64,000 bases of DNA from an uncultured delta proteobacterium. GTDB taxonomy: Bacteria > Desulfobacterota > Binatia > UBA9968. The notes under the pieces were generated by a model. That model saw nothing but the letters and a program-made list of their open reading frames with translations. It did no database searches and was not told the DNA's origin. The stretch spans positions 12,272 to 76,271 of the forward strand of contig CAVTUQ010000017.1 of NCBI GenBank assembly GCA_963737905.1, given 5' to 3'. Position numbers and translations under genes: made by a program. Positions 5,585-25,791 of this stretch are shown here, one piece after another; within the stretch, counting starts at the first letter, position 1; each line of letters begins with the position of its first letter.

Positions 5585-5638
5585 TGGTCCGAACCCACCC
5601 CCCCAAACGACGACACAGCATCAGAGCCTCCAGATTAG

Positions 5639-5818
5639 CTAGGCGTCACGAATGTTCGCTTTGACGCGCTCGATCAGCTCCGGCGTCACTTGCCGGATGC
5701 CGTGTTGCATGGCGTGCTCACCTGCTTTCTGCAGTACCTCCTCTTCTGTCTCACCCCGTACGATGTGCTGACACCCGCTCGACGGGTCTACTTTGGCGCA
5801 TTCCAGGATCTTTGCCAT
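5639..5818 (-). CDS. DUF1059 family small metal-binding protein
   Basis: MAKILEC...GC...RGETEEEVL..AGEHA..HG; GGAGG RBS before ATG at 5818. Confidence 0.85.
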   Translation of the reverse strand: MAKILECAKVDPSSGCQHIVRGETEEEVLQKAGEHAMQHGIRQVTPELIERVKANIRDA

Positions 5819-7148: not shown

Positions 7149-8197
7149 CGTTGAGTGGACGGTGCTTTTTGATCGGTGATCAGGGGATCAAGTTTTTCTT
7201 TCAGACTTGGCTCCAACTCGACGGCTTTTTTAAAGTCTTTCTGCGCATCCTCGTTTTTTCCCTGGCGCAGCTTCACCATTCCCCGGTTGCCGTAAATCCG
7301 GGCATTTTTGGGGTCGAGTTTTATGGCTTCATCGTAATCTCGTAACGCCTGGTCGTACTTGCCGAGCAGCGAGTAAGCGTTGCCGCGGTTGTTGTAAGCC
7401 TCGGCATCCTTGGAATTGAGTTTGATTGCCTCGGAATAATCTTTTACCGCCAGCTCATGGTTGCCCAGCCGGCGCTGCGCGAGTCCACGGCTGGAATATA
7501 TTTCAGAGTCCTTGGGGCTCAGTTTCTGGGCCTGATTGAAATCTTGAATCGCTTTTTCGAACTGGCCCAGGCGCGTGTAGGCTTCACCCCGCTGGTAGTG
7601 GGCTTTAGTTGATTTCGGCGTGTGCTTGATGACCTCGTCGTAGTCTTTTATCGCGGCCTGGTACTGCTTCTGCGCGAAGTGAGCATTGGCACGGTTGTAG
7701 AAAACATCGGTGAGTTTGGGATTTTGTTGCAACGCTTCGTCAAAGCTCTTGACGGCGTTGTCGTACTGTCCGAGCTTATAATAGGCCAGGCCACGGTTGT
7801 TGTAGACCTCCGTGAGCTTTGGATTGCGGCGCACGGCTTCGTCATAATCTTTGATAGCCGCTTGGTATTGTTTAGATTCGTCGTGGGCATCACCTCGCTT
7901 GTAATAGGCGTCTGCCAGATCCGGATTTAGCCTAATGGCCTCATCGTAATCCTTGATGGCCCGATCTGACTCCCCAAGTTTGGCATAGGCGGAACCCCTG
8001 CCGAGATAAGCTTCAGCGGCTTTGGGTGCAGCCTTGATCGTTCTGTCGTAGGCGGCGATGGCTTCCTTAAACTTTCCGGCGCGGTAGAACTTCACCCCCT
8101 CGTTAAAGGCGTCTTGTGCTTCGCCGGCAAAAAGCAGGCTTGCTATTCCGATAAAGACAACGCCCGAGATCCACCCCATGCCTGATTGCGCTCTCAT
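7145..8197 (-). CDS. Secreted TPR-repeat protein
   Basis: Signal peptide and about 9 TPR repeats; paralogue of the adjacent gene. Confidence 0.9.
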   Translation of the reverse strand: MRAQSGMGWISGVVFIGIASLLFAGEAQDAFNEGVKFYRAGKFKEAIAAYDRTIKAAPKAAEAYLGRGSAYAKLGESDRAIKDYDEAIRLNPDLADAYYKRGDAHDESKQYQAAIKDYDEAVRRNPKLTEVYNNRGLAYYKLGQYDNAVKSFDEALQQNPKLTDVFYNRANAHFAQKQYQAAIKDYDEVIKHTPKSTKAHYQRGEAYTRLGQFEKAIQDFNQAQKLSPKDSEIYSSRGLAQRRLGNHELAVKDYSEAIKLNSKDAEAYNNRGNAYSLLGKYDQALRDYDEAIKLDPKNARIYGNRGMVKLRQGKNEDAQKDFKKAVELEPSLKEKLDPLITDQKAPSTQR

Positions 8198-8326
8198 GCT
8201 GTCAAGATGTTTAACTTATGGCGTCAAGAATGTCCACTTTGTGCGCGGGCGCCGATCGTGCCTGGACAAAACGGCCAAAAAGGAATAAGGGTGGGAGATA
8301 ATGATTAGCGACAGGAGGATAGAGTT

Positions 8327-9382
8327 ATGAGCACAGCCGCAGCATCGACGGCAGAGTCGGTTCTCGCCGGTGAATCAATCGTTTCGGCGGATTCCCATAT
8401 CATGGAACCGGTGGATCTTTGGGAAAAGAATTTGACGCCCAGCCTAAAGGAGAAATACCCCAAATTTCCTCCGCGCAACTCGCCGGGGGAAAAGCCGGGA
8501 GGGTGGGATCCCAAAGCACGTCTTGGAGAAATGGAAGTCGACGGGGTTAGCGCCGAGGTGCTTTATCCGACCTTCGGCCTGCGCTTGTTTGCTTTGGAGG
8601 ATGCCGATGTACAAGAGGCCTGCTTCCGAATCGCCAACGATTGGCTGATCGATTACTGCAAGGTTTCGCCGGGCCGGTTAGTAGGAATCCCGATGATCTC
8701 CCTTTACAACCTCAAGAACGCGATTAAAGAGCTCGAGCGTTGTAAGAAAGAGGGATTGGTGGGCAGTTTGATCTGGCAGGTCCCGCCGGAGCATCTGTCG
8801 TTTACCAGCGACTATTACGATCCGTTTTGGGAAGCCTCTCAGGATTTGAACATGCCGGTCAACCTGCACATTCTCACCGGCTTCAACTACAGCCGCTTTG
8901 ATCGCAAGGGACTCGATACTTACAGAATGACGGTGAATCAGAAGCTGGCCGATGCCGCCAATACTTTGTTTGATCTCGTGTTCAGCGGCGTCATGGCACG
9001 GTTCCCCAAGCTGAAGTTCGTCTATGTGGAGAACGAAGTCGGCTGGATCCCGTTTTTCGTTCATGAATGGGACAAGTATTTCGTCCGCCACAGCCCGAAA
9101 ATGCCTCTCCCGTATATGAAGAAATTACCCGGAGAGTACGTCGCCGAACAGGTTTACGCGACGTTTTTCAGCGACCCGGCGGGCGGGCGGCTGATGGAGG
9201 ATTTCGGTCAAGACACCTTCATGTGGTCCAACGATTATCCCCATGCAGCGTCCACTTGGCCCCATTCGCGCGATGTTATTGCCAGGGAGCTTGGTCACCT
9301 ACCCAAAGATATCCTTCGAAAAGTCGTGCGCGATAACGTGATTAAGCTCTACGATCTCAAGATTGACGGAATAAATAATTAA
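8327..9382 (+). CDS. Amidohydrolase_2 family protein
   Basis: SADSH metal motif, EVLYPT, WSNDYPH. Confidence 0.9.
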   Translation: MSTAAASTAESVLAGESIVSADSHIMEPVDLWEKNLTPSLKEKYPKFPPRNSPGEKPGGWDPKARLGEMEVDGVSAEVLYPTFGLRLFALEDADVQEACFRIANDWLIDYCKVSPGRLVGIPMISLYNLKNAIKELERCKKEGLVGSLIWQVPPEHLSFTSDYYDPFWEASQDLNMPVNLHILTGFNYSRFDRKGLDTYRMTVNQKLADAANTLFDLVFSGVMARFPKLKFVYVENEVGWIPFFVHEWDKYFVRHSPKMPLPYMKKLPGEYVAEQVYATFFSDPAGGRLMEDFGQDTFMWSNDYPHAASTWPHSRDVIARELGHLPKDILRKVVRDNVIKLYDLKIDGINN

Positions 9383-11590: not shown

Positions 11591-12604
11591 ATGCGTTTCT
11601 ACATCAACATCCTGACCACTTATTATCCCGATCTCGATCCGCCCTACGACGTTTACTATCAGCAGATTCTCGAGCAAATCGAGCTCGCCGAAGAGTTGGG
11701 CTGGGAATGTTTCATGTTCAACGAGCACCATTTCCTCGGCTACGGCGGCCTCGTCGCCAACCCCGCAGTGCTGCTGGCCGCCGCCGCGGCGCGCACCTCG
11801 CGCATTCGCTTGGGTCCCTGCATCGCGATTCTGCCGTTACGCCATCCGCTGCAGAGCGCCGAAGACTACGCTATGGTGGATGCGGTTTCAGGTGGCAGGC
11901 TGGAGTTCGGTATCGGCTCCGGCAATACGCCTTTGGATTATCACGTGTTCGATATCGAGAGGGAGGAGGGGCAGGCGAGGATGGAAGAAGCGCTGGAGAT
12001 CATTCTCAAAGCTTGGCGTAGCGAACGTTTCAGCCACGAAGGGAAGTTCTGGCGCTTTCAGGAGATAACGCTCTACCCGAGGCCGGTGCAGCAACCGCAT
12101 CCGCCGATTTGGGTCGCAGGCACATCGGCGAGGACTCTGGAATGGGCGGGGCGCCGGGGGTATGACATTATGACGGTGGGCCATCCGCATCCACCGGAAA
12201 AAGTGGGTCCGGGTGTCGAGGCGTGGAAAAAAGCGTTAATCGAGAGTGGCATCGACCCAAAGGAGCGCCGTTGCCAGTTCCACACGAGAACTCACGTTAA
12301 CGAGAATAGCGAGCGTGCGCGCGACGTCGCCATGGCGGCGGTCACTCGCTACGACGCGATTTCCAGAATCGGTCGCAGATCAGTAAAGCCCGAAACGGAC
12401 AACTATGATTGGGATGGGATGTTGGCAACCGGCCGAAATCTCTACGGCAATCCCGACCAGTGCATTGAGATCATTCACAACGCCATGCGTCATTACTATT
12501 TCAATATCTTGACTACAACTTTTAATTTCGGCGGCATCCCCCACGAAGAGATCAAAAAATCCATGCGTCTCTTCGCCCGAGAAGTGATGCCGGCCCTCCG
12601 CTAA
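11591..12604 (+). CDS. LLM-class flavin-dependent oxidoreductase
   Basis: EHHF, AAAARTSRIRLG, GGRLEFGIG, PVQQPHPPIWVA, MRLFAREVMP. Confidence 0.9.
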   Translation: MRFYINILTTYYPDLDPPYDVYYQQILEQIELAEELGWECFMFNEHHFLGYGGLVANPAVLLAAAAARTSRIRLGPCIAILPLRHPLQSAEDYAMVDAVSGGRLEFGIGSGNTPLDYHVFDIEREEGQARMEEALEIILKAWRSERFSHEGKFWRFQEITLYPRPVQQPHPPIWVAGTSARTLEWAGRRGYDIMTVGHPHPPEKVGPGVEAWKKALIESGIDPKERRCQFHTRTHVNENSERARDVAMAAVTRYDAISRIGRRSVKPETDNYDWDGMLATGRNLYGNPDQCIEIIHNAMRHYYFNILTTTFNFGGIPHEEIKKSMRLFAREVMPALR

Positions 12605-12676: not shown

Positions 12677-13663
12677 GTGCCGCGGAACGATCAGATAACC
12701 CGTCAGTGGCACTTGTTGCGGCGGCTCGAAAACACCCGGGGCCTGACTCTCTCGGAGCTTGTCGAAGCGGTCCCTGACGATTACCCAAAGAACGATCGCA
12801 CGGTTCGGCGGGATTTAGAGGCGCTGGAAGCGGTCGGTTTTCCGCTCGTGACAGAACACCACAATGGGCAGACACGCTGGCGGTTGATCGAGGGCTTCCG
12901 AAATATTCCCGCGCTCGGGTTTTCGGCTACGGAGCTGATGGCTCTGACTTTTAGCCGGAAACTACTCGAACCGTTACAAGGCACGGAGATTCAGTCAGCG
13001 CTCAACTCCGCATTGAACAAAGTCGCGAGCGCGTTACCGCCGCAGGCGCACGGGTATGTTCGCTCGCTCGATAACTTGTTTTCCATCGGCCTCGGCCCGC
13101 ACAAGAATTATCAGCAATACAAGACCATCGTCGACCTCATCACCCAAGCCATCGACAAAACTCGAACCGCACAGATCAGGTATTTCTCCGCATCGCGTAA
13201 CGCAACCAGTCGGCGGGAAGTCGGTCCTTATCGTCTCTGGTACGCTTCCGGCGGCCTCTACTTGATCGCCTATGACCACCTGCGAAAAGATGTGAGGATG
13301 TTCGCTGTCGAGCGGATTCGCTCCATCACTCTCACGGATCATCCGTATCAAATGCCGCTCGGCTTCGAGGTGGAGGAGTACGTCCAGGACGCGCTCATGA
13401 TTATGAGAGGACGGCGGATCGACGTGGAACTTCTCTTTTCCAAGAAAGTGGCGGCATGGATGAAGGACAAGCTCTGGCATGCCAGCCAGGAGGCGTTCCT
13501 CATGAAAGACGGACGGTTGAGAATGACCTTGAAGGTGGCGGACACCGATGAGCTTGTAGGCTGGATCTTGAGCTTTGGCAGCCAGGTCCGGGTCGTCAGC
13601 CCCGAAAGTCTGTGGAAAAAGGTGCGAGACGAAGCGAGAAAAATAGCGGGTTCAAAAGGATAA
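12677..13663 (+). CDS. WYL-domain transcriptional regulator (HTH-WYL-WCX; PafBC/DriD/YafY-like)
   Basis: N-terminal HTH (RTVRRDLEAL), WYL region (PYRL..GGLYLIAYDHLRKDVRMFAVERI), C-terminal WILSFG..V.V.SP. Confidence 0.92.
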   Translation: MPRNDQITRQWHLLRRLENTRGLTLSELVEAVPDDYPKNDRTVRRDLEALEAVGFPLVTEHHNGQTRWRLIEGFRNIPALGFSATELMALTFSRKLLEPLQGTEIQSALNSALNKVASALPPQAHGYVRSLDNLFSIGLGPHKNYQQYKTIVDLITQAIDKTRTAQIRYFSASRNATSRREVGPYRLWYASGGLYLIAYDHLRKDVRMFAVERIRSITLTDHPYQMPLGFEVEEYVQDALMIMRGRRIDVELLFSKKVAAWMKDKLWHASQEAFLMKDGRLRMTLKVADTDELVGWILSFGSQVRVVSPESLWKKVRDEARKIAGSKG

Positions 13664-13741
13664 GGTCGGAGACGGCGTCATTTTTAACTTTGAACTGAGC
13701 GAAGCAAACGGTTTCCCGATCGCATTTAACGCCCGGCTATT

Positions 13742-13757
13742 ACATCAAAAATGATGT
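13742..13757. promoter_or_regulatory. Putative antitoxin operator ACATCA-N4-TGATGT
   Basis: Perfect 6-bp inverted repeat 9 bp before the toxin start codon. Confidence 0.55.
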
Positions 13758-13766
13758 TGCATCCCT

Positions 13767-14120
13767 ATGGATTTCACAGTAGAGTTTTATGAGACGGAGA
13801 CGGGGAAGTGCCCGGTGCGAGAATTCCTGGACGAGTTGAAGGCCAGTGATCCGGACGATTTCGCGGCGGTGGTCGCCGGTCTGGCAAAACTGCGGAGCCG
13901 GCAATATCACCGGGAGCCGTTATCCAAGGCGCTCGGCGATGGGTTGTTTGAACTGCGCCACGTCGGCAAGCTTAATACCCGTGTGTTGTGGTTTTTCATG
14001 AAGAATCGCCGAATCGTTGCGCTGCACGGCATCCGCAATAAGAGGCGCGCGATACCGTCTCGCGATCTCAATACTGCGCGGGAGCGGATGCGTGACTGGC
14101 GGAAAAGAGCAGAACAATGA
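13767..14120 (+). CDS. RelE/ParE/HigB-family toxin (Gp49-like)
   Basis: VEFYET..GKCPVREFL, PLSKAL.DGLFELR, RVLWFF..RRIVALHG. Confidence 0.85.
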   Translation: MDFTVEFYETETGKCPVREFLDELKASDPDDFAAVVAGLAKLRSRQYHREPLSKALGDGLFELRHVGKLNTRVLWFFMKNRRIVALHGIRNKRRAIPSRDLNTARERMRDWRKRAEQ

Positions 14121-14497
14121 AAAAAACCAATTTCGACCGTTACCTCGAAAAGCAGTTGCAGGATCCGACGTTTGCCGCCCGTTTTAAGAACGCGGGCGAG
14201 GCGTGGGATGTCGCGCTGCAAATAGCCGCCCTTCGCGAGCAGGCCGGGCTTTCGCAAAAGGACCTCGCGAAGCTGCTCAAAACCTCGCAGCAGCAGATTA
14301 GCCGGCTTGAGTCGCCGGGCTACGAAGGCCACTCCCTCAGCACCCTGCGCCGCGTCGCCGGCGTCTTGCACGCCCGGGTGCGCATCGTATTCGAGCCGAC
14401 AAAAGTCACAAATGAGATGCATGTAGCCGAACCGCCAGGGCCATATCGCGCCAAGCGTGCTAAGGCTAAAAGAAAACAAACCGGAGTTGGTCCTTGA
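14117..14497 (+). CDS. XRE-family HTH antitoxin (HigA-like) with basic C-terminal tail
   Basis: LREQAGLSQKDLAKLLKTSQQQISRLES; ATGA overlap with the toxin gene. Confidence 0.88.
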   Translation: MKKTNFDRYLEKQLQDPTFAARFKNAGEAWDVALQIAALREQAGLSQKDLAKLLKTSQQQISRLESPGYEGHSLSTLRRVAGVLHARVRIVFEPTKVTNEMHVAEPPGPYRAKRAKAKRKQTGVGP

Positions 14498-14540
14498 ACC
14501 CGTTCGCCAGGCTCAGGGCAAGCTTTGAACATTGAACCAA

Positions 14541-14633
14541 CGCCAGGCCCTACGGAGCGAAGCGGTTGAACGGTTGGAACGACGTGAACGTTTTGAACGG
14601 TAGTTTTCTTGGCGATCGTGACCTTGGATGTCA
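14541..14633 (+). repeat. 93-bp direct repeat, copy 1
   Basis: cgccaggccctacg...gaagcggttgaac...gaacggtagttttcttgg.gatcgtgacct.ggatgtca; collinear with 15603-15695. Confidence 0.92.
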
Positions 14634-14650
14634 CTCGTATGTGGTAGAAA
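14618..14650 (+). promoter_or_regulatory. Putative WYL operator/promoter GTGAC-N7-GTCAC-N10-TAGAAA
   Basis: Palindrome at 14618-14634, -10-like box at 14645-14650, ATG at 14658 with no RBS (possibly leaderless). Confidence 0.6.
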
Positions 14651-14657
14651 TCACGGC

Positions 14658-15203
14658 ATGAGCGAGGAACTGGAGGTTTTGAAGGAGGTGGCGCGGCGCC
14701 TCGACCGCGTCAACATCGGCTACATGATTACCGGATCGATTGCGACAAACTTTTACACGGTCCCGCGCATGACTCGTGATATCGATATCGTCGTGGAGTT
14801 GTTCGAGCAAGACATTGGCCGATTCATTCCGCTCTTTGAAAACGACTATTATCTGGAACCGCAGACCGTCGGAGAAGCGGTTCGGAACAAAGGGATATTC
14901 AATCTGATTCATGATCAATACATCATCAAAATCGACTTCGTGGTACGGAAAGATACACTCTACCGGCGCCGCGAATTCTCCAGAAGAAGGAAAGTTACGG
15001 TCGATAATCAGGATCTCTTCGTCGTATCACCGGAGGATCTCATCCTATCCAAGCTGGACTGGGCGAAAGATTCGCGATCCGAAGTCCAGCTCAATGACGT
15101 GCGAAATCTCTTGAAGTCCGTCAAAAGGCTTAACCGAAGCTATCTTGCCCGCTGGGCAAAGGCATTGGGCATCGAATCCCTTTATCGCGAGGTGAGTAGG
15201 TGA
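14658..15203 (+). CDS. Pol-beta superfamily nucleotidyltransferase (DUF6036-like), putative toxin
   Basis: ITGSIA...PRMTRDIDIVV catalytic motif, KIDF, PEDLILSKL. Confidence 0.8.
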   Translation: MSEELEVLKEVARRLDRVNIGYMITGSIATNFYTVPRMTRDIDIVVELFEQDIGRFIPLFENDYYLEPQTVGEAVRNKGIFNLIHDQYIIKIDFVVRKDTLYRRREFSRRRKVTVDNQDLFVVSPEDLILSKLDWAKDSRSEVQLNDVRNLLKSVKRLNRSYLARWAKALGIESLYREVSR

Positions 15204-15631
15204 AAGACACGCCTTTGGCAATCGAACGGAAATTTCGAAAGATGCTGATGAAACGGTCCGGAGAGGAGCGTCTTAAGATGGGATGTTCGATGCATGGGAC
15301 CGCGCAGGCGCTTGCTAAAGCGTACATATCGCAGCAGCATCCGGGTGCTCATCCGGCTCAGTTCAAGCGGCTATTCTTTCTTCACTTTTACGGCCCAGAC
15401 TTTGAGCCCAAAGAGCGAAAACGAATCGCGGCAGCCTTGTCCGAGAAACCGCGCGTCCGCCGGAGTGCTGGAGCCGGGCAAGCCGGCAACGCGCAACCTA
15501 TCACGCCCAAGAATGCCGGCCATCGTGAAGGTTTCGCCGCGGGTGCGGTCCGGGAAAAACGCGAGACTTATGGAGCAAAGAGAAAAAGCAAAGCTAAACG
15601 ACCGCCAGGCCCTACGAAGCGAAGCGGTTGA
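15200..15631 (+). CDS. Small helical partner of the nucleotidyltransferase (putative antitoxin) with basic tail
   Basis: GTGA overlap with the NTase stop; MKDT...SGEERLKMGCSM...LFFLHFYG; stop codon lies inside direct repeat 2. Confidence 0.7.
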   Translation: MKDTPLAIERKFRKMLMKRSGEERLKMGCSMHGTAQALAKAYISQQHPGAHPAQFKRLFFLHFYGPDFEPKERKRIAAALSEKPRVRRSAGAGQAGNAQPITPKNAGHREGFAAGAVREKRETYGAKRKSKAKRPPGPTKRSG

Positions 15632-15695
15632 ACGTTTTGAACGGCTTGAACATTTTGAACGGTAGTTTTCTTGGTGATCGTGACCTCGGATGTCA
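15603..15695 (+). repeat. 93-bp direct repeat, copy 2
   Basis: Same length and collinear with 14541-14633, with about 10 substitutions. Confidence 0.92.
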
Positions 15696-15701
15696 AAATG
15701 G

Positions 15702-15735
15702 TGTGACCTGATCTGTCACAGAGGTACTGTAGAAT
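15702..15735 (+). promoter_or_regulatory. Putative WYL operator/promoter of the cas operon TGTGAC-N7-GTCACA, -10 TAGAAT
   Basis: Perfect palindrome at 15702-15720; TGTCAC(15714-15719)-N10-TAGAAT(15730-15735); 31 bp before the cas3 ATG. Confidence 0.68.
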
Positions 15736-15766
15736 CCAAATGTAAACTGCCAACAGAAAAAGACCA

Positions 15767-18261
15767 ATGGTGTCGTTCCCATATATTGCACATCAACGAA
15801 AACAGGATGGTGCCGAACAAAGTTTGGAAGAGCATCTATTCGGCGTTGCTGAAACAGCGAAATCTTTCGCGGCAAAGATTCGTTTAGAGGAGCAAGGTGA
15901 GCTAATCGGGCTGCTGCATGATTTGGGAAAATACAGCAAAGAATTTCAAATTTATTTCCGGTCCGCCGTTGGACTTATCAACCCGGATGAAGATGATTTC
16001 GTCGATGCGCGGGGACTAAAAGGAAAGGTAGATCATTCGACCGCTGGAGCTCAGCTTGTTTGGGAAGAACTCTCGACGCGAGGTCAGTTGGGGAAGATCG
16101 CCGGTCAAATCCTCGACTTGTGTATAGCGTCGCACCACTCTGGCTTGATCAACTGCCTTTCCTCCGATACCAAAAGCGTCGGCGCGGACGTTTTCGCAAA
16201 ACGGATGCAGAAGTTGGATGATCGAACCCACCTCCAGGAAGCCCGGCGCAACATGGACACGGTTATCGCCGAAAGATTCCGCGAGTTGGCTAATAATCCG
16301 AAAATAATTGACGGAATCAAAGAATCTATCCGGCAAGTGGCAATTTGCGATATTAGGTCAGGAATACGGCCCCACGAAAACCCAATCACGCAATTTAAAA
16401 CCGGTTTGCTCGTACGATTCCTCTTCAGTTGCCTGATCGATGCAGACCGCATCAATACAGCCGACTTCGAAAGCCCAGAAACCGCTGGGAAGCGGCTGAA
16501 TGGTAAGTATTCCGAATGGAATCTACTGATCGATCGGTTGGAATTGCATCTTCAGAAGTTCACAGACCAATACCCGATAGATGAATTCCGTCGTCGCATT
16601 TCGGACCAATGCAGTCAGAGTGCAACTCGGGATAAAGGCATATTCACGCTTACCGTACCAACTGGTGGCGGTAAGACGCTCGCCAGTCTTCGGTTTGCGC
16701 TACGCCATGCTCAACGGCACGAGATGGATCGGGTGGTTTATGTGATTCCGTTCACGTCTATCATCGACCAGAATGCTGACGTCGTGCGGAAGATTTTTGA
16801 ATCATCAGCGGATGGCGTAGAGCCAGGCAGTATCGTACTCGAACACCACTCGAATATTACGCCGGAAGAACAAACGTGGAAAAGTAAGATTCTGTCCGAG
16901 AACTGGGATGCGCCCGTTGTTTATACGACTAATGTTCAGCTATTAGAGACTTTTTCGGGGCCGGCACACGCGGAGCGCGGCGGATGCACCAGTTAGCCAA
17001 TGCCGTGATTGTCTTTGATGAAATCCAGACCCTTCCCGTCAATTGCATTCATCTGTTCTGTAACGCGGTCAATTTCCTTGTCGAACATTGCGGAAGTAGC
17101 GTCGTGCTGTGCACGGCCACACAACCACTGCTGAATCGTGTGGAACCGTCGAAGGGCGCGCTGCGCATGGTTGCAAATAGTGAAATCATGCCGGGCGTGG
17201 CGAAACTTTTTGAGGATTTGAAGCGGGTTGAGGTGGTGAATGGCAGAAAGCCCGGAGGCTGGACGAATGAGGAAATTGCCCGTCTTGCGCTGGACGAAGC
17301 GGATCAGAGTAATAGTTGTCTGGTGATTGTGAATACCAAGAAATCAGCGCAGGCGCTTTTTCAGCTCTGTGAAAGCGCGAAGCAAATGCCGACCTACCAC
17401 CTGAGCACAAACATGTGCGCCGCGCACCGCAAGAAGAGGCTTGGTGAAATTCGCGGACGTCTCGCTAACTCTGAGCGTCTTTTGTGTATCAGCACCCAAC
17501 TAATCGAAGCTGGAGTCGATATAGATTTTGGATCGGTAATTCGATTCATCGCGGGGATGGACTCTATCGCGCAAGCGGCTGGAAGGTGCAATCGTAATGG
17601 ACGTCCGAAGTTAGGTAGAGTGCATATCGTTAACCCATGCGCCGAAAACGTTGATATGCTCAAGGACATAAGCAGAGGAAGGGATACTACCGCGAGACTA
17701 CTTGATGAGTATGAGAAACAGCCCGCTAGATTTGGCAATGATTTGCTCGGACCCGACACGATGGGCTGGTATTTCAATTACTATTTTTTTGACCGGCGCG
17801 GAGACATGGATTACCCGGTTCGGGCTGGGACGCTTGGGCATGATGACACTCTACTCAATTTGCTCTCGGTCAATCCAAACGCAACCGAAGAGTTTCGTCG
17901 TTCCCATGGCGCGTCTCCCAATATGTATCTTCGCCAATCGTTCATGGCTGCGGCCAAGGCGTTCAAGTCAATCGATGCACCGACCAGAGGCGTAATTGTA
18001 CCGTATGGCGAAGAAGGCAAGGCTCTTATCAATGAATTATGCGCTGCCTTTGCAATTGAAAAACAGTTTGGGCTTCTGCGAAAGGCGCAGCAGTACACGG
18101 TCAACGTGTTTCCCCATGAGCTACAGCGACTACGGGACGCCCAGGCCGTGCACGAAGTGCAGGACGGTACGGACATTCTCTATCTTGATGCCCGTTATTA
18201 TAGCGATGAGTTCGGACTGAGCCTGACGCCCAACGGGGACATGGAGGTGTTATATGCCTGA
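15767..18261 (+). CDS. cas3: CRISPR-associated helicase/nuclease Cas3 (HD + SF2), single-base frameshift at 16951-16955
   Basis: [47 protein letters not shown]; adding one base restores the reading into [13 protein letters not shown]. Confidence 0.95.
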
Positions 18262-18976
18262 ATTGAATCGGAACATTATTCAGTTTCGCGTCTGGGGACG
18301 GTTCGCGCTTTTCACCGATCCAATAACCAAGATCGGTGGAGAAAAGTGCTCGTATCACATTCCAACCTACGAGGCGATTAAAGGTATCGCCAAGTCGATC
18401 TATTGGAAGCCCACGTTCGTTTGGGTCATTGACGAAGCGCGTGTCATGAAGCGTATTCGCACCCAAACGAAAGGAACTAAACCGTTGGAATACGGTGGTG
18501 GAAATACTTTAGCCATCTACACATTTCTGGCGGATGTCGAGTATCGGGTAAAGGCTCATTTCGAATGGAATATGCATCGGCCAGAGCTTGCAGATGACCG
18601 TAACGAATCGAAGCACCACATTATCGCTCAACGCATGTTGGAACGCGGCGGGCGGCAGGATATTTTTCTCGGCACTCGCGACTGCCAGGGCTATGTGGAA
18701 CCTTGCGAGTTCGGCTCTGGAGTCGGTTATTACGACAAGTCGGGAGAACTCGCGTACGGTGTGATGTTTCACGGGTTCGATTACCCCGATGAAACAGGGG
18801 ACGGCAAGCTTCACGCACGTTTCTGGCGACCAACCATGACCGATGGCGGGATTCGGTTCGCGCGGCCAGAGGATTGCACGATCAGAAAGTTTGTCAGGGA
18901 GATGACCGTGAAGGAATTCGATAAAAAAAGGAATTTCCGCAGCGTGGAATCCGAAGTTAGCGGATTGGAAGACTGA
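18254..18976 (+). CDS. cas5: Type I-C Cas5c (Cas5d) pre-crRNA processing protein
   Basis: [27 protein letters not shown]. Confidence 0.95.
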
Positions 18977-18977
18977 T

Positions 18978-20873
18978 ATGAGTTGGCTTCAGAAACTCGA
19001 TGAAACTTACCAGAGATGTGCACGTAACCCAAGGTTCGTCGGCGAAGCGAAGCCGCTGTTGCCAATCAGCCATGCGACACAGCAAGCTCATGTCGAGATC
19101 GTCATAGACGATCAGGGGAAGTTTCGGCGGGCAACCGTTCTTCCCAAAGTAGAAACGATCCTGCCTGCTACGGAGCAATCGGCTGGCCGGTCCAGTGGCG
19201 AAGCACCGCACCCACTCTGCGATAAAATTCACTATTGCGCCGCCGACTATCCTAAGTATGGCGGTCAGAAACCTGCGTATTACGTCGGATACGCCGAACA
19301 GCTGTCGCAATGGTGCAATTCCAGCTTTTCTCACGCCAAAACCAAGGCTGTGCTCAAGTATGTCAGCAAAGGAACCGTCGTTGCTGATCTTCTCCGCGAG
19401 AAGATTTTGCACGTGGGCGATGACGGGAAACTCGTGACTTCTTGGGACTCCGATGCCCCTGGACCCGACATATTTAAGTATTTGGCTGCCAAGAAAGAGT
19501 CAGGCGTCACGATTCGAGACCAAGGGGATGCGTTGGTACGCTGGCGCGTTGAGACGGTAGGAATTCCCTTGTCCGCAACATGGGAAGACCAAGACTTGAT
19601 GCAAGCTTGGATTGGCTTCTATGCAAGTCAGAAACAAAGCCGGGGGCTTTGTCAGGTGACTGGAGAAGAATCGATATTGGCGGATCAGCATCCTGCCAGG
19701 CTGAGGCACGGTGGAGACAAAGCGAAGCTGATTTCCTCCAACGATACTAGCGGATTTACTTTTCTCGGACGGTTTATTGATGCCGATCAAGCGTGCGGCG
19801 TAGGATTTGATGTCACCCAAAGAGCCCATAATGCTTTGCGCTGGTTGATTGGGCGACAGGCATACCGAACTGGGGATCAGGTTGTTGTGGCGTGGGCCGT
19901 GTCAGGTAAGCAGATTCCCGATCCTTTCAAAAACTCGCATGAGTTATTTGGTATTGAGACGCACCAACTGGAAGTAGAGCTGGCATTGCAAGGAGATGTG
20001 GGACAGGCGTTTGGAAGGAGACTCGCCCAGTTGATTGCCGGCTATCGAGCAGAACTCGGTTCGACCAATGAAATTGTCGTCATGGGACTCGACTCGGCTA
20101 CGCCAGGCCGTATGGCGATCACATTCTATCGGGAACTGAGAGGTTCGGAATTTCTCGAGCGCGTTCAAGCGTGGCATGAAAACCTTGCCTGGTTCCAACA
20201 CTATTCCAAAGAAATTCGCTTCATAGGAGCGCCGTCTCCTAGAGAAATTGCCGAGGTCGCTTTCGGGCGGCGATTGGACGACAAACTACGGAAAGCAACG
20301 GTAGAGCGCCTGCTGCCCTGCATTATTGACGGGCAGCCGATTCCTCGCGACCTCATGGAATCGGCGGTACGCAAAACCTGTAACCGGGCAGGTCTCGAAC
20401 CTTGGGAGTGGGAAAAGAACCTAGGCATCGCTTGCGCCTTATTCAGAGGTTATTTCGCAGAAAGGAGCTACCAGATGGCGTTAGAATCGAATCGGACCAC
20501 ACGTGATTATCTTTACGGCCGGCTGTTGGCAATTGCGGAACATATCGAAGACCGTGCACTTTATATCGCTGGTGAAAGACGGGATACGAGCGCAGCCAAG
20601 CTCATGCAACGTTTTGCCGACCGTCCCTACTCAACCTGGAGAACAATTGAGCTTTCGTTAGGACCATACAAGACACGTCTCCGTGCCAAGCGTCCATCGT
20701 TCCTGAATGAAATGGGAAGAAAGCTCGATGAGGTTATCGGCGCGTTTCATGAGCCGGATTTCACGGACGAACGACGGCTTTCCGGTGAATTCCTGCTTGG
20801 ATATCATTGCCAGCGACAGGCGTTGTGGGCCAAACCAGAGAACGGAACAGATGAAGAGGATAATGATAGCTAA
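18978..20873 (+). CDS. cas8c: Type I-C Cas8c/Csd1 large subunit
   Basis: MSWLQKLDETY, PHPLCDK, AKLISSND, YLYGRLLAIA, FLLGYHCQR. Confidence 0.95.
   Translation: MSWLQKLDETYQRCARNPRFVGEAKPLLPISHATQQAHVEIVIDDQGKFRRATVLPKVETILPATEQSAGRSSGEAPHPLCDKIHYCAADYPKYGGQKPAYYVGYAEQLSQWCNSSFSHAKTKAVLKYVSKGTVVADLLREKILHVGDDGKLVTSWDSDAPGPDIFKYLAAKKESGVTIRDQGDALVRWRVETVGIPLSATWEDQDLMQAWIGFYASQKQSRGLCQVTGEESILADQHPARLRHGGDKAKLISSNDTSGFTFLGRFIDADQACGVGFDVTQRAHNALRWLIGRQAYRTGDQVVVAWAVSGKQIPDPFKNSHELFGIETHQLEVELALQGDVGQAFGRRLAQLIAGYRAELGSTNEIVVMGLDSATPGRMAITFYRELRGSEFLERVQAWHENLAWFQHYSKEIRFIGAPSPREIAEVAFGRRLDDKLRKATVERLLPCIIDGQPIPRDLMESAVRKTCNRAGLEPWEWEKNLGIACALFRGYFAERSYQMALESNRTTRDYLYGRLLAIAEHIEDRALYIAGERRDTSAAKLMQRFADRPYSTWRTIELSLGPYKTRLRAKRPSFLNEMGRKLDEVIGAFHEPDFTDERRLSGEFLLGYHCQRQALWAKPENGTDEEDNDS
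20475..20873 (+). CDS. cas11: Putative Cas11c small subunit translated from an internal in-frame start in cas8c
   Basis: AAGGAG Shine-Dalgarno at 20462-20467, in-frame ATG at 20475 (MALESNRTTRDYLYGRLLAIAE). Confidence 0.7.
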   Translation: MALESNRTTRDYLYGRLLAIAEHIEDRALYIAGERRDTSAAKLMQRFADRPYSTWRTIELSLGPYKTRLRAKRPSFLNEMGRKLDEVIGAFHEPDFTDERRLSGEFLLGYHCQRQALWAKPENGTDEEDNDS

Positions 20874-20891
20874 GTTGGCCAAGGAGGAAAT

Positions 20892-21740
20892 ATGAGCACG
20901 TTGCAACAAAAGATAGACTTTGCCGTTGTTCTTCGCGTCAAGAACGCAAATCCCAACGGCGACCCTCTGAACGGGAACCGACCGCGCACGGACTATGATG
21001 GACTCGGCGAAATAACTGACGTGTGCATCAAGCGCAAGATCAGAGATCGGCTTCTCGAAAAAGGCAGCGCGATTTTCGTTCAGTCGGACGATAGAAAGGT
21101 GGACGACGCGAAAAGCCTGCGGGGTAGGGCCGAGGCTGCCCTTGGGAAAAAGCTTGGTTCCACCGACACAGCCAAAATCGCTTGTGAGAAATGGTTCGAT
21201 GTCCGTGCCTTCGGTCAGCTTTTCGCGTTTAAGTCTGACAAAAAAGGTAAGAAAAAAGACGAGGGTGATGATGGAGATACGGGCGTTTCCATCGGAATAC
21301 GCGGACCTGTCACAGTCCAATCCGCGTTCAGCGTAGAGCGTGTGAGTATTACAAGCACGCAGATTACGAAAAGCGTCAGCGGTGAAGGAGATGGTAGCAA
21401 GCGCAGTTCTGACACAATGGGTATGAAGCATCGTGTGGATCAGGGTGTGTATGTATTCTTCGGTAGCATGAACCCGCAGCTAGCGGAGAAAACCGGGTTT
21501 AGTGACGAAGATGCTGATGCAATCAAACAGCTATTACCACGGCTTTTCGAGAACGACGCTTCATCAGCCAGACCCGAAGGCAGCATGGAGGTATCTAAAG
21601 TGTTCTGGTGGAAGCATAACTGCAAAGCGGGACAATACTCCTCCGCCAAAGTTCACCGCACGTTGTCCGTCAAACCTGATGGCAGTTACGAACTCGGGAG
21701 TCTTGAAGGCCTGAAACCTGAAGAAATTGACGGCTTTTGA
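20892..21740 (+). CDS. cas7: Type I-C Cas7/Csd2 backbone
   Basis: NANPNGDPLNGNRPR, DVCIKRKIRD, DVRAFG, NDASSARP. Confidence 0.95.
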   Translation: MSTLQQKIDFAVVLRVKNANPNGDPLNGNRPRTDYDGLGEITDVCIKRKIRDRLLEKGSAIFVQSDDRKVDDAKSLRGRAEAALGKKLGSTDTAKIACEKWFDVRAFGQLFAFKSDKKGKKKDEGDDGDTGVSIGIRGPVTVQSAFSVERVSITSTQITKSVSGEGDGSKRSSDTMGMKHRVDQGVYVFFGSMNPQLAEKTGFSDEDADAIKQLLPRLFENDASSARPEGSMEVSKVFWWKHNCKAGQYSSAKVHRTLSVKPDGSYELGSLEGLKPEEIDGF

Positions 21741-21779
21741 GAAACATCGGATTCGTCAGTTCACGAAGCGAATTGAACC

Positions 21780-22403
21780 ATGAGCGCCAACATCGAAGAC
21801 GACCTCGTCATGATCTCCGCCCTGGAGCATTACAGTTACTGCCCGCGGCAGTGTGCGCTGATTCATGTTGAGCAAACATTTGACGAGAACCTTTATACGT
21901 TGCGCGGCCGGGTTGTGCATGAGCGGGTGGATGAGCCGTTGGCTGAATTTCAGGAAGGCGTGCGGGTCGAACGGGCGCTGCCGTTGTGGTCGAAACGGCT
22001 GGGGCTAATCGGCAAGGCGGATGTCGTCGAATTTCACGGTGTAATTCCCTATCCCGTCGAGTACAAGCATGGCTCAAAGCGTGAACGGGAGCATGACGAT
22101 CTGCAACTCTGTGCGCAGGCGATCTGTCTTGAGGAAATGGCCGGAAAAGCTGTTCCGAAGGGCGCGATCTTTTATCACAGCTCGCGCCGGCGGCGGGAAG
22201 TGGCATTTACAGACGCCCTTCGTACCGACGTAGAAGCCGCCACGGATGCGATTAGGACAATGATGAAGGAACAAAACCTGCCGCCACCTGTGAATGACAG
22301 CCGGTGCCGTCACTGTTCGCTTAAAGATTCGTGCATGCCTGCGGTTGTGGGGGAGAAGGCGAGGGCCGCTGCTTTGCTACGCAGCTTATTCGTGGCGGTT
22401 TAG
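21780..22403 (+). CDS. cas4: Cas4 RecB-like nuclease
   Basis: YCPRQ, GKADVVE, PVEYK, QLCAQ, C..CS....C Fe-S cysteines. Confidence 0.95.
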   Translation: MSANIEDDLVMISALEHYSYCPRQCALIHVEQTFDENLYTLRGRVVHERVDEPLAEFQEGVRVERALPLWSKRLGLIGKADVVEFHGVIPYPVEYKHGSKREREHDDLQLCAQAICLEEMAGKAVPKGAIFYHSSRRRREVAFTDALRTDVEAATDAIRTMMKEQNLPPPVNDSRCRHCSLKDSCMPAVVGEKARAAALLRSLFVAV

Positions 22404-22417
22404 TATATGAGGAAAAT

Positions 22418-23449
22418 ATGCATCAACTTCTGAATACCCTTTACGTAACCACAGAAAATTCTTTCTTGCGCCTCGATCATGAAACCCTGAAAGTAAGCGT
22501 CGAGAAGGAAACGAAGCTTCAGGTGCCGCTGCATCATCTCGGGGGCGTAGTTTGCTTCGGCGACGTGATGGTCAGTCCGGCGCTGATGCGGCGCTGTGGC
22601 GAGGATGGGCGCTCGCTGGTTTTGCTCGACCGTAACGGTCGCTTTAAAGCACGACTTGAAGGGCCGGTATCGGGTAACGTCCTTCTTAGGCGGGCGCAAC
22701 ATCAATGGTCGACCAACGCAGAAAAGTCGCTTGGCATCGCTAAGAAGATCGTTGCCGGTAAGATCCAGAACTCGAGGCAAGTTCTCATGCGTGCCGCGAG
22801 GGAAGCGGCGGATGCCGACGATGAAAAGGGTCTAAGAGAGGGCGCGGAGGCGCTAGCTGATGCGCTGGTACGGATTCCCAACGGCGACGATATCGATCAG
22901 CTTCGCGGATTTGAAGGGGAATCCGCCCGCGCATACTTCAACTGTTTCGATCACATGGTTCTCGAAGACCGCGAATCGTTTCGTCTCGACGGCAGAAACC
23001 GCCGCCCGCCTCTCGATCCAATGAATGCGCTTCTCTCATTTATCTACTCGATGCTGACGAACGACTGCGTTTCGGCAGCGGAAGGCGTAGGATTGGATCC
23101 TCAAGTCGGATTTCTGCACGTCCTGAGGCCGGGCCGACCGGCGCTTGCTTTGGATTTGATGGAAGAGTTGAGGGCGATTCTCGCGGACCGTCTGGCTCTG
23201 ACATTGGTGAATCGCCGGCAGGTGACCTCCGCAAACTTCGAAGATCGTCCAGGTGGTGCCGTACATCTCGGCGAAGAGGGAAGGAAGGTTGTAGTGGTCG
23301 CATATCAGACTCGGAAGCAGGAAGAAATCCTTCATCCGTTGCTGGAGCAAAAAGTTCCCTTGGGGCTTGTGCCGCATGTGCAAGCGCGTTTATTGGCGCG
23401 CGTCTTGCGCGGCGACATGGAGGAGTATGTTCCGTTTCTCTATCGGTAG
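22418..23449 (+). CDS. cas1: Type I-C Cas1 integrase
   Basis: LLNTLYVT, GNVLLRRAQ, LRGFEG, RRPPLDPMNALLSF, ALDLMEELR. Confidence 0.97.
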   Translation: MHQLLNTLYVTTENSFLRLDHETLKVSVEKETKLQVPLHHLGGVVCFGDVMVSPALMRRCGEDGRSLVLLDRNGRFKARLEGPVSGNVLLRRAQHQWSTNAEKSLGIAKKIVAGKIQNSRQVLMRAAREAADADDEKGLREGAEALADALVRIPNGDDIDQLRGFEGESARAYFNCFDHMVLEDRESFRLDGRNRRPPLDPMNALLSFIYSMLTNDCVSAAEGVGLDPQVGFLHVLRPGRPALALDLMEELRAILADRLALTLVNRRQVTSANFEDRPGGAVHLGEEGRKVVVVAYQTRKQEEILHPLLEQKVPLGLVPHVQARLLARVLRGDMEEYVPFLYR

Positions 23450-23457
23450 CTCTGACT

Positions 23458-23748
23458 ATGCTGATTCTTGTTTCCTACGACGTTTCAACGAAAACTGCCG
23501 AAGGCGAGAAACGTCTTCGCAAGGTAGCACAACTGTGTAAAGACTTCGGCCAGCGCGTGCAAAAATCAGTATTCGAGTGTTCTGTAGATCAGGCGCAGTA
23601 CGAGGATCTTGTTCGTCGCCTTCGTCAGTGTATAGAGGAGGATGAAGATAGCATCCGGTTCTATAGGCTCGTCGAGCCGCGTGATCGCTATATGAAAGTG
23701 TATGGTGTCAACCGTGATGTTGATTTTGAGGCGCCTCTTATTTTTTGA
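23458..23748 (+). CDS. cas2: Cas2
   Basis: LVSYDVST, GQRVQKSVFEC, DSIRFY. Confidence 0.97.
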   Translation: MLILVSYDVSTKTAEGEKRLRKVAQLCKDFGQRVQKSVFECSVDQAQYEDLVRRLRQCIEEDEDSIRFYRLVEPRDRYMKVYGVNRDVDFEAPLIF

Positions 23749-23936: not shown

Positions 23937-25791
23937 GTAGCGCCCGCTCTTCGGAGCGGGCGAGGATTGAAACGTACCTGAGCGCCGTACTCCTGCGCGA
24001 TGTTGCCGTGTAGCGCCCGCTCTTCGGAGCGGGCGAGGATTGAAACATCTGATTTGGCTCCCGAAGCTACATCACTGCTGTAGCGCCCGCTCTTCGGAGC
24101 GGGCGAGGATTGAAACTCCATTCATACCGGAGGCTGCACGGTAGAAGCCGGGTAGCGCCCGCTCTTCGGAGCGGGCGAGGATTGAAACATAATGATCGTA
24201 CCGGAAATGCTTAAATCCTCTATCGTAGCGCCCGCTCTTCGGAGCGGGCGAGGATTGAAACCTACATATACGTGTGCCATCGTAGATCGGCATCAACATG
24301 GGTAGCGCCCGCTCTTCGGAGCGGGCGAGGATTGAAACATCCTGTCCGCCCTGCATCTAATATCGCCGGGTCAGGTAGCGCCCGCTCTTCGGAGCGGGCG
24401 AGGATTGAAACTGTCTGCGATGCAGCGAAGCTCGCCTACGCATGAGTAGCGCCCGCTCTTCGGAGCGGGCGAGGATTGAAACGTTCCTACCGCCGAGGCA
24501 CCCTGACGGGCAGGCACGTAGCGCCCGCTCTTCGGAGCGGGCGAGGATTGAAACGGTGGGGCGATATATCGGCAGCGAGTTTGCTGCTACGTAGCGCCCG
24601 CTCTTCGGAGCGGGCGAGGATTGAAACACGGTGGACAATGGAAGTCGCCACAATATTACCAGGTAGCGCCCGCTCTTCGGAGCGGGCGAGGATTGAAACT
24701 CACGGAGGTCAGTCACCACGCCATTGAGCCAGTTGGTAGCGCCCGCTCTTCGGAGCGGGCGAGGATTGAAACATTTTTAGCGACGTATCTGTCTAAGCTG
24801 CAAGGTAGAGTAGCGCCCGCTCTTCGGAGCGGGCGAGGATTGAAACGGGCGAAATCCACTATCGACGCAGGGTGAAACCGGGTAGCGCCCGCTCTTCGGA
24901 GCGGGCGAGGATTGAAACTATATTTTGTCATCGGTCCCCGCATCAGTCATTTAAGTAGCGCCCGCTCTTCGGAGCGGGCGAGGATTGAAACTTTTTGTAA
25001 CGAGATTACAGACCACACGACGCTTACTGTAGCGCCCGCTCTTCGGAGCGGGCGAGGATTGAAACTCGTTACAATAATCACAGTAGCACCGTAACAGGAT
25101 ACGTAGCGCCCGCTCTTCGGAGCGGGCGAGGATTGAAACCTTCATGGAAGTTACGCTCCAGAGTCTCATGCCGCGTAGCGCCCGCTCTTCGGAGCGGGCG
25201 AGGATTGAAACCCAACCTAAGTAATCAAAGCGAAACGCGGCGATAGTAGCGCCCGCTCTTCGGAGCGGGCGAGGATTGAAACCATGCAAATGGCTGCTAA
25301 TCATGCTGGAATTACCTAGGTAGCGCCCGCTCTTCGGAGCGGGCGAGGATTGAAACCTCGAATCCGCCTATTAGATCGGCCTTGCTGATTTTGTAGCGCC
25401 CGCTCTTCGGAGCGGGCGAGGATTGAAACACCAGTAACGGCAGCAGGCCACGCCCTAGGGGAGGTAGCGCCCGCTCTTCGGAGCGGGCGAGGATTGAAAC
25501 CCAACTGTTCTTTTGCGAGATGGGATCGACGCCGATGTAGCGCCCGCTCTTCGGAGCGGGCGAGGATTGAAACATTGCCTGCCACACAACTGAAGCGGCG
25601 GTTTTGTCGTAGCGCCCGCTCTTCGGAGCGGGCGAGGATTGAAACCGTGGGCGAATAACCTCGGGCTACAGGGGATAAACGGGTAGCGCCCGCTCTTCGG
25701 AGCGGGCGAGGATTGAAACCAGCCGTTGCTGATCGTGTTTGTGTGCCTGCGAGCGTAGCGCCCGCTCTTCGGAGCGGGCGAGGATTGAAAC
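23937..25791 (+). CRISPR. Type I-C CRISPR array, 26 repeats of GTAGCGCCCGCTCTTCGGAGCGGGCGAGGATTGAAAC (37 bp), 25 spacers of about 33-40 bp
   Basis: Repeats counted by eye from 23937 to 25755; 9-bp stem with TTCG loop and 3' ATTGAAAC end. Confidence 0.99.

Follow-up and report, generated by a model that had tools for sequence, protein, structure and literature searches.

A candidate WYL-regulator box at a fixed distance from the -10 element in front of a MenT1-like cassette and a type I-C cas operon

Promoters and genes of the locus

We analyzed a 64,000-nucleotide stretch of DNA (the window hereafter) from an uncultured delta proteobacterium of the Binatia (contig CAVTUQ010000017.1 of assembly GCA_963737905.1, positions 12,272 to 76,271), in which the gene for a WYL-domain regulator lies upstream of a nucleotidyltransferase (NTase) gene and a type I-C CRISPR-Cas operon. 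The regulator is a 328-residue protein with winged helix-turn-helix (wHTH), WYL and WCX domains, encoded on the plus strand at 12677-13663 and assigned by Pfam, PADLOC and alignment to solved relatives. The NTase gene (14658-15203, plus strand) encodes a putative toxin of 181 residues with a profile match to MenT1, and the next gene (15200-15631, plus strand), the start of which overlaps the NTase gene, encodes a putative antitoxin of 143 residues that is probably related to MenA1 (Rv0078B), judged from matches to PF18993 within its family and from a predicted complex. The cas operon begins with cas3 at 15767 on the same strand. A 17-bp palindromic box stands in front of both the NTase gene and cas3, each time exactly 10 bp from a -10 hexamer.

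The box of the NTase promoter, GTGACCTTGGATGTCAC, occupies 14618-14634 on the plus strand and is followed, after an N10 spacer at 14635-14644, by TAGAAA at 14645-14650 with a TGn in front of it. In the cas3 promoter, the proximal box GTGACCTGATCTGTCAC at 15703-15719 leads after the same interval to TAGAAT at 15730-15735, and a distal box with one mismatch, GTGACCTCGGATGTCAA, lies upstream at 15680-15696 (all plus strand). A first-pass annotation of this DNA had described both box and hexamer pairs, a third and degenerate site, and the lack of a clear -35 element in either promoter. Its coordinates for the NTase promoter proved exact, the other two sites were confirmed, and a search of the plus strand between 12500 and 15900 found no -35/-10 pair of the sigma-70 type. 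The ATG of the NTase gene lies 7 nt beyond the -10 hexamer, and the NTase mRNA is therefore probably leaderless. Similarly short distances occur in box promoters of four related loci (L030, L033, L034 and L059), where the first listed start codon is just 3-9 nt past the -10 hexamer. A search for RNA sequencing runs that contain the locus returned none.

The boxes at 14618 and 15680 are not independent of each other, since each belongs to a copy of the same promoter module. They form the 3' ends of a 99-nt direct repeat (D1), whose copies at 14535-14633 and 15597-15695 are 90% identical; the 3' end of the partner gene extends into the second copy. The NTase promoter therefore combines a copy of the cas3 module's upstream half with an N10 spacer and a -10 hexamer of its own, and the cas3 promoter is the full module, with a distal box, a proximal box 23 bp further on (centre to centre) and a -10 hexamer. 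Inside the repeat are TTGAACGNN 9-mers and a GGAGCGAAGCGG stretch, both of which are dispersed through the genome. The tandem TTGAACGNN 9-mers and a neighbouring GCCAGGCCCTACGGAGCGAAGCGG stretch, at 14550-14600 and 15612-15662, recur at very many places in the genome, and sequences from the repeat interior collect numerous unrelated contigs of soil metagenomes, leaving many loose ends. Runs of TTGAAC of a similar kind precede the boxes in relatives, and a conserved block, GGTAnTTTTCTTGGnnATC, lies 5' of the distal box in Binatia-type loci. We also considered the distal box in reverse, as a leftward promoter with TTGACA as its -35 element, and rejected this reading when no acceptable -10 element was found at 17-18 bp.

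Allowing one mismatch, GTGAC-N7-GTCAC occurs at 7 sites in the window against 1.47 expected, and none of 100 shuffles reached 7. The genome of 6.7 Mb (87% complete), in which all genome-wide scans were made, contains the exact palindrome 8 times, which is about the chance number, and two of these sites belong to the window locus. Stricter patterns converge on the locus, which holds three of the four GTGACC-N5-TGTCA sites in the genome and two of the three sites with box, N10 and TAnnn[A/T]. Genome-wide scanning, which the first-pass annotation had suggested as a check, found the strict proximal pattern at this locus and nowhere else and disclosed no wider regulon: we found no further box promoters elsewhere in the genome, where a relaxed pattern gave 7 sites at N10 compared with 7 at N9 and 6 at N11. 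The regulator therefore appears to be local.

The WYL gene, which the first-pass annotation had called adjacent, does not lie directly next to the NTase gene. Between them, at 13767-14497, is a gene pair on the plus strand that consists of a Gp49/HigB-like toxin gene (13767-14120; Pfam Gp49, 6.1e-13), which has no WYL box in front of it, and a gene for an XRE-family helix-turn-helix (HTH) protein (14117-14497; Pfam HTH_3, 1.1e-8), the start of which overlaps the preceding stop and which is the likely antitoxin of the Gp49-like protein. A perfect 16-bp palindrome, ACATCA-AAAA-TGATGT, at 13742-13757 ends 9 nt before the Gp49/HigB-like start; it bears no relation to the WYL box and likely serves as an operator for the XRE antitoxin. 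On the other side of the regulator gene is a gene for a luciferase-like monooxygenase (11591-12604, plus strand).

The type I-C gene set is complete. Downstream of cas3, the plus strand carries cas5c, cas8c, cas7c, cas4, cas1 and cas2 at 18254-23748 (Pfam Cas_Cas5d, Cas_Csd1, Cas_Cas7, Cas_Cas4, Cas_Cas1 and CRISPR_Cas2) and a CRISPR array with a 37-nt repeat at 23937-25574, detected with Tandem Repeats Finder. The cas3 gene itself (15767-18261; HD and helicase domains by Pfam and NCBIfam) is not intact and comprises two overlapping frames, which split inside the helicase domain at 16984-16996. Both halves align to a single Cas3 of 757 residues from a related locus (L059), one up to residue 367 and the other from residue 378, and the split may reflect a frameshift, a pseudogene or an assembly error. 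The short contigs obtained from four soil-metagenome runs did not span it.

The box and its spacing among orthologous WYL loci

To follow the box beyond the window, we pooled 39 orthologous WYL loci, of which 33 came from a scan of species-representative genomes and five were fetched separately, the window being the last; L022 (on the same contig as L031), L023 and L028 (from an unpublished genome) were excluded. WYL relatives from other genera of the same family are 72-76% identical to the window protein and those from a second family of the order 57-58%, and the 33 scanned loci span 52-85% identity, with records labelled Candidatus Binatia, "Deltaproteobacteria", Nitrospirales or Nitrospira, and Acidobacteriota. 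Boxes were counted from -5 to +4500 relative to the WYL stop codon, with the GAC-N7-GTC core intact and up to two mismatches allowed.

At least one box followed by N10 and TA lies downstream of the WYL gene in 30 of the 39 loci, whatever the cargo. The first-pass annotation had named conservation of the motif in homologous loci as a check on its proposal, and the box is indeed conserved there. The loci lacking such a promoter are L035, L036, L046 and L054 (contig ends soon after the WYL gene), and L051, L052, L053, L055 and L056. Upstream of the WYL gene, none of the 35 loci with the necessary sequence has a box within about 300 nt of the start codon. On the downstream side, the first box (at most one mismatch) is no more than 120 nt from the WYL stop in 20 loci. 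In L024, L026 and L027 the TGA stop codon of the WYL gene falls within the GTGACC half-site of the first box, and in the L030-L033 group the box begins 9 nt past the end of the tblastn match to the WYL protein. The WYL gene is the sole gene common to the box-bearing loci. Together, these comparisons strongly support the assignment of the box to the neighbouring WYL protein, and they suggest that this protein very probably binds it. The WYL gene of the window has lost the stop-overlapping box, of which just GGAT is left at 13651-13654.

Under the counting rule the loci contain 74 boxes, and 38 of these have TA at an offset of 10 bp (TAnnnT in 29). The next most frequent offsets were 15 (9 boxes) and 12 (8 boxes), and reading the opposite strand gave TA at offset 10 for only 5 of the 74. 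The 10-bp spacing that had been noted in the window is therefore conserved among relatives, since no other offset is shared by more than nine boxes. The N10 spacers themselves are only 33% identical among promoters, indicating that the spacing was kept while the sequence drifted. No promoter among the 38 has a convincing TTGACA-like -35 element, the best match at 16-18 bp from the -10 hexamer being 3 of 6 positions or fewer in every case, and 20 of them have neither a -35 element nor a TGn.

The 17-bp box has the consensus GTGACC-N5-TGTCAC around the GAC-N7-GTC core. Aligning the 38 boxes with the fixed spacing gave a proximal consensus of TGACCTnnnnTGTCAC-N10-TAnnnT, in which three positions that the search did not require are nearly invariant (C6 in 38/38, A16 in 37/38 and T12 in 36/38). 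Another 27 boxes, mostly distal, have the consensus cGTGACCYnGGATGTCA, with GGAT present in 26. Distal and proximal boxes stand 23 bp apart in the window and 32-34 bp apart in six promoters of the Binatia type; among 15 loci, mostly of the Nitrospirales, the distance is 98-113 bp, and one further case has 184 bp.

The nucleotidyltransferase cassette and other cargo

The NTase has 6343 relatives, all of them unnamed, and its matches to DUF2204 and DUF6036 are marginal. A profile built from 30 relatives matched PDB entry 8an4 over residues 7-75 (5.8e-4). This structure is MenT1, an NTase toxin that modifies tRNA (PMC10435456). Residues G26, S27, T39, D41 and D43 are invariant in the 30 relatives. 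The partner family is smaller, with 176 relatives, and 20 of 29 members matched PF18993, the MenA1 family, at E ≤ 0.01 (best 8.1e-6); the window protein itself scored 0.0066 and 16.9 bits, under the curated cut-off of 27.1. A profile search with the partner found no solved structure, PADLOC gave no match for either protein, and NCBIfam gave none for the NTase, the partner or the WYL protein.

We then modelled the NTase together with partner residues 1-90. The predicted complex scored 0.91 compared with 0.29 for the best control. In benchmarking, 58 of the 80 solved complexes attained this mark, as did 2 of the 110 mismatched pairs; these counts apply only approximately, since our own alignments were used. 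Independent runs agreed in at least 87% of contacts, and the predicted local distance difference test (pLDDT) score of the partner was at least 82. In the models the partner would contact NTase residues 31-40, next to the catalytic aspartates. A similar MenAT1 complex has been solved (8AN5), so the high score may reflect likeness to it. With the profile match to MenT1 and the PF18993 matches of the partner family, these predictions make it reasonable to regard the two genes as a MenT1/MenA1-type toxin-antitoxin (TA) pair with a putative toxin, in agreement with the earlier idea of a toxic NTase module. That idea had gone further and cast the module as an abortive-infection or dormancy backup to CRISPR-Cas. 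We found no evidence for such a role, and toxin and antitoxin would be induced jointly, which offers it no support.

The resemblance to MenAT1 has limits. The NTases are of similar size (181 residues here and 196 in MenT1), share the active-site stretch PR(M/F)TRD(I/V)DIVV and keep T39 and D41 (PMC10435456), and the partner family weakly matches the Rv0078B model and is predicted to sit beside the active site. However, the similarity is weak, with a profile match of 5.8e-4 over 70 residues and a partner below the Pfam cut-off. The partner is also longer, with a core of about 85 residues compared with 68, and its gene lies downstream of the NTase gene, whereas 15 of 21 menA1 genes are located upstream (PMC10435456).

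The same two-gene unit occurs in L034 and L057, and in L034 and L063 (genome G083) the cassette stands behind a box of the same type with N10-TAAGAG. L031 contains a second, unrelated NTase-like gene (184 residues) with a 73-residue partner at 7985-9332, flanked by two promoter modules of about 110 nt that each have a distal and a proximal box, a layout like that of the window.

The relatives differ in their cargo, which either follows a box promoter or comes straight after the WYL gene. CRISPR-Cas genes are represented by type I-E gene sets (L027, L044, L050 and L053), type I-C (L059), an I-G-type set with GSU0053 and a Cas4-Cas1 fusion (L026), a GSU0054/RAMP set (L049) and further cas3 genes (L029, L045, L047, L048, L060 and L061). 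Other cargo includes the type I restriction protein HsdR (L030), VWA, SF1 helicase and BrxA proteins (L037), DUF4007 with a large open reading frame (ORF) in L040 and with a large ORF and a PAPS reductase in L052, Fic (L024, L030, L032 and L033), ORF6N (L025, L029, L034 and L057), an AlbA_2 protein (L022, equivalent to L031) and a 1747-residue SF1 helicase-nuclease (L021). By sequence assignment, BREX and Ssp/Dnd-like genes are among the cargo types, and VapBC pairs occur on the opposite strand among the relatives' neighbours. In L025, a short ORF after the WYL island (5485-5751) begins, from its translation, with a Cas4-like N-terminal motif and may be the remnant of a lost cas operon.

Activation, repression and known WYL regulators

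The regulator has clear WYL (PF13280, 1.4e-19, residues 151-218) and WCX (PF25583, 5.2e-18, residues 247-324) domains, with weak N-terminal matches to HTH_11 and HTH_DeoR that fall below the cut-off and correspond to the winged HTH. The PADLOC model "WYL, CAS associated_signaling" matches it at 8.8e-41. It also matches positions 61-313 of the 1009-position PADLOC "Cas3c" model (2.9e-27), which implies that some type I-C systems encode a fusion of WYL and Cas3. By sequence, its best solved relatives are PafBC (8e-17), PafC (7e-13) and DriD (2e-10); structure entry 9pfq is cited in the DriD-RNA polymerase preprint. A phmmer search at E ≤ 0.01 returned no match named BrxR or CapW, and three matches were labelled merely "WYL domain-containing protein". 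In a full-length alignment of low identity, R41 and R45 align with Arg37 and Arg41 of DriD, the residues that recognize the half-site's conserved G and C (PMC10853764). DriD Glu40, which reads C1 of CGAC, aligns with R44, and the boxes studied here have TGAC in place of CGAC as their half-site. The same alignment keeps five of the ten DriD contacts to single-stranded DNA (ssDNA), namely Y168, S172, R178, Y192 and R204, and replaces W206 conservatively with F.

Because the promoter geometry equals that of PafBC and the closest solved relatives, PafBC and DriD, are activators, we favor activation as the best reading. The 17-bp box would be the binding site of the protein encoded at 12677-13663 and would serve two promoters in the window, that of the leaderless NTase cassette and that of the type I-C operon with its added distal box. 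A ligand-bound WYL dimer would sit where sigma region 4 meets the -35 element and recruit RNA polymerase, as PafBC and DriD do, so that an infection or DNA-damage cue could switch on the NTase cassette and the cas genes together. A promoter module of about 100 nt would have been copied in front of successive cargo genes, with other defense systems swapped in among relatives. We consider this explanation as a whole, in which WYL-bound boxes act in promoters lacking a -35 element through PafBC- or DriD-like recruitment, to be moderately probable, and activation by the WYL protein, judged from geometry and kinship, is on balance the likelier direction of control. As the cue we tentatively propose a nucleic-acid ligand, for example ssDNA, and give this somewhat less than an even chance.

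A different use of the same DNA site would make the WYL protein a repressor of the BrxR/CapW type. The promoters would then fire by themselves through an extended -10 element, and a dimer covering about -39 to -23 would block RNA polymerase until a ligand released it, with help from the distal box. Extended -10 elements can function without a -35 element, and TGn precedes the -10 hexamer in 18 of the 38 box promoters, including the NTase promoter of the window and excluding its cas3 promoter; these 18 keep repression in contention. The 20 promoters that have neither element fit self-firing poorly. Box pairs spaced at 23, 32-34 and 98-113 bp would also suit cooperative or looping repression, and TA operons are usually held repressed. 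Repression, however, requires no exact distance to the -10 element, and yet 38 of the 74 boxes keep TA at offset 10, with WYL proteins only 52-85% identical and spacers that have drifted to 33% identity. The WYL regulators of defense characterized so far, in the sources covered, do repress (PMC9122588, PMC9122601, PMC11662680, PMC13622015), but their known sites overlap or follow the -10 element whereas the boxes here precede it (PMC9122588, PMC9122601), the regulator's own gene has no box upstream, and the nearest solved relatives by sequence are activators. We regard repression as unlikely, though well above negligible. Besides the extended -10 elements, the box pairs and the precedent of the known repressors, other observations count against activation of the kind that we favor. 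In the DriD alignment, contacts R189, R207, Y240 and R288 are replaced by S, A, M and D, and Tyr240 is the residue that intercalates in the ssDNA contact. The box at position 1514 of L024 stands directly before a Fic gene without TA at N10, and among ten further NTase cassettes from same-family genomes only one has a full box and two have just a (T)GTCAC half-site at N10. Finally, the loci are kin, so that counts across them overstate independence.

Alternatively, the boxes might mark cassette boundaries, act in recombination or bind a different protein, for instance the XRE antitoxin, with the likeness inside the window due to the 99-nt duplication, to which two of the three window boxes indeed belong. 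Boxes flank cassettes of about 1 kb in both the window and L031, and relatives without a cassette are hinted at by weak joints from 14498 to 15201 and from 13599 to 14482, each found in two of four soil-metagenome runs on short contigs that may stem from relatives. A recombination site, however, would not preserve the exact 10-bp spacing to a -10 hexamer on a single strand (38 of 74 boxes compared with 5 of 74 on the other). Just the WYL gene is common to the 30 box-bearing loci, most of which have no XRE gene, and no integrase family appeared among the Pfam matches of the scanned ORFs downstream of the WYL genes. This explanation is very improbable, and we return to activation in what follows.

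If the WYL protein does activate, the CRISPR-Cas genes and their neighbors would normally be silent and switched on by a nucleic-acid cue, and the rule of a box plus N10 could be used to read such regulons straight from metagenomes. The design resembles damage-sensing switches of a known kind, here apparently serving local immunity. A bolder extension, which we offer with more reserve than the proposed cue, is a "plug-in" defense island in which one infection or damage sensor serves a portable module of about 100 nt that is copied before each captured cargo. TA, Fic, ORF6N, restriction-modification (RM), BREX and Ssp-like genes, together with CRISPR-Cas genes of three or more type I subtypes, might all be silent in such an island until the WYL protein is triggered, and recombination between modules might exchange the cargo. 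If true, the island would be a local, inducible counterpart of the global DdaA and PafBC regulons and the reverse of the BrxR/CapW logic. How bacteria time the expression of costly or self-harming defense genes is still poorly understood. This clade, from uncultured soil and water bacteria labelled as three groups (Binatia, Nitrospirales and Acidobacteriota), offers a sequence-defined test case for a logic opposite to that of the defense-linked WYL repressors, with a conserved box, an exact -10 register and cargo that ranges from TA pairs to three CRISPR subtypes.

The first-pass annotation knew of no described system with this layout, a statement that is too strong. WYL proteins beside CRISPR-Cas have been published (PMC4012209), as have WYL regulators beside CRISPR-Cas, RM, BREX and TA genes (PMC9122601), and DdaA, an activator of the WYL type, increases the expression of CRISPR-Cas and RM genes once DNA is damaged (PMC12392091). 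In literature searches that covered few subscription journals, we found no local, island-encoded WYL regulator with PafBC-type promoters before type I CRISPR-Cas or MenT-like cassettes, and no WYL regulator tied to a type I-C cas3 promoter or to MenT-type toxins.

Of the described regulators, PafBC is the best solved sequence match and shares the WYL-WCX architecture. The motif given for it in the first-pass annotation agrees with the published tGTCgg(N10)tA(N3)T (PMC8635444), which has the same half-site register as TGTCAC(N10)TA(N3)T here. PafBC promoters also lack a -35 element, and PafBC sits between the DNA and sigma region 4 (PMC8635444). The mycobacterial regulator is either a heterodimer or a fusion protein, recognizes a single half-site and governs a DNA-damage response of about 150 genes, whereas here a single 328-residue protein would serve a full palindrome, commonly with a distal box, in a local regulon of two promoters with anti-phage and TA genes as cargo rather than repair genes. 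DriD of Caulobacter crescentus is closer in build, as a homodimeric wHTH-WYL-WCX protein of the same length with a conserved base-reading Arg pair. Its motif, ATACGAC(X)7GTCGTAT (PMC10853764), contains the GAC-N7-GTC core palindrome that had likewise been given correctly. DriD sites overlap the -35 position of promoters that lack a -35 element and lie at one fixed distance from the -10 element (PMC13004042), a likeness in arrangement. DriD also binds its own promoter, whereas no box lies upstream of the regulator gene here; it controls repair and cell-division genes, and four of its ten ssDNA contacts are not kept in the window protein.

BrxR and CapW share the domain architecture and are likewise encoded beside and upstream of varied defense systems that include CRISPR-Cas, RM, BREX and TA genes (PMC9122601). 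They are repressors that regulate their own expression: CapW binds palindromic sites overlapping the -10 element (PMC9122588), and BrxR binds repeats downstream of the -10 element before its own gene (PMC9122601). Here, in contrast, the box ends 10 bp upstream of the -10 hexamer and is found downstream of the regulator gene. DdaA of the Moraxellaceae, a WYL activator, recognizes the palindrome CGWCA-N5-TGWCG, which with W as A contains GAC-N7-GTC, and its motif occurs in CRISPR-Cas and RM promoters whose expression is raised after DNA damage (PMC12392091). No TA cargo is mentioned in the parts of the DdaA report examined, and DdaA differs from the island-encoded regulator described here in being a global regulator that replaces SOS and is encoded away from the defense genes (PMC12392091).

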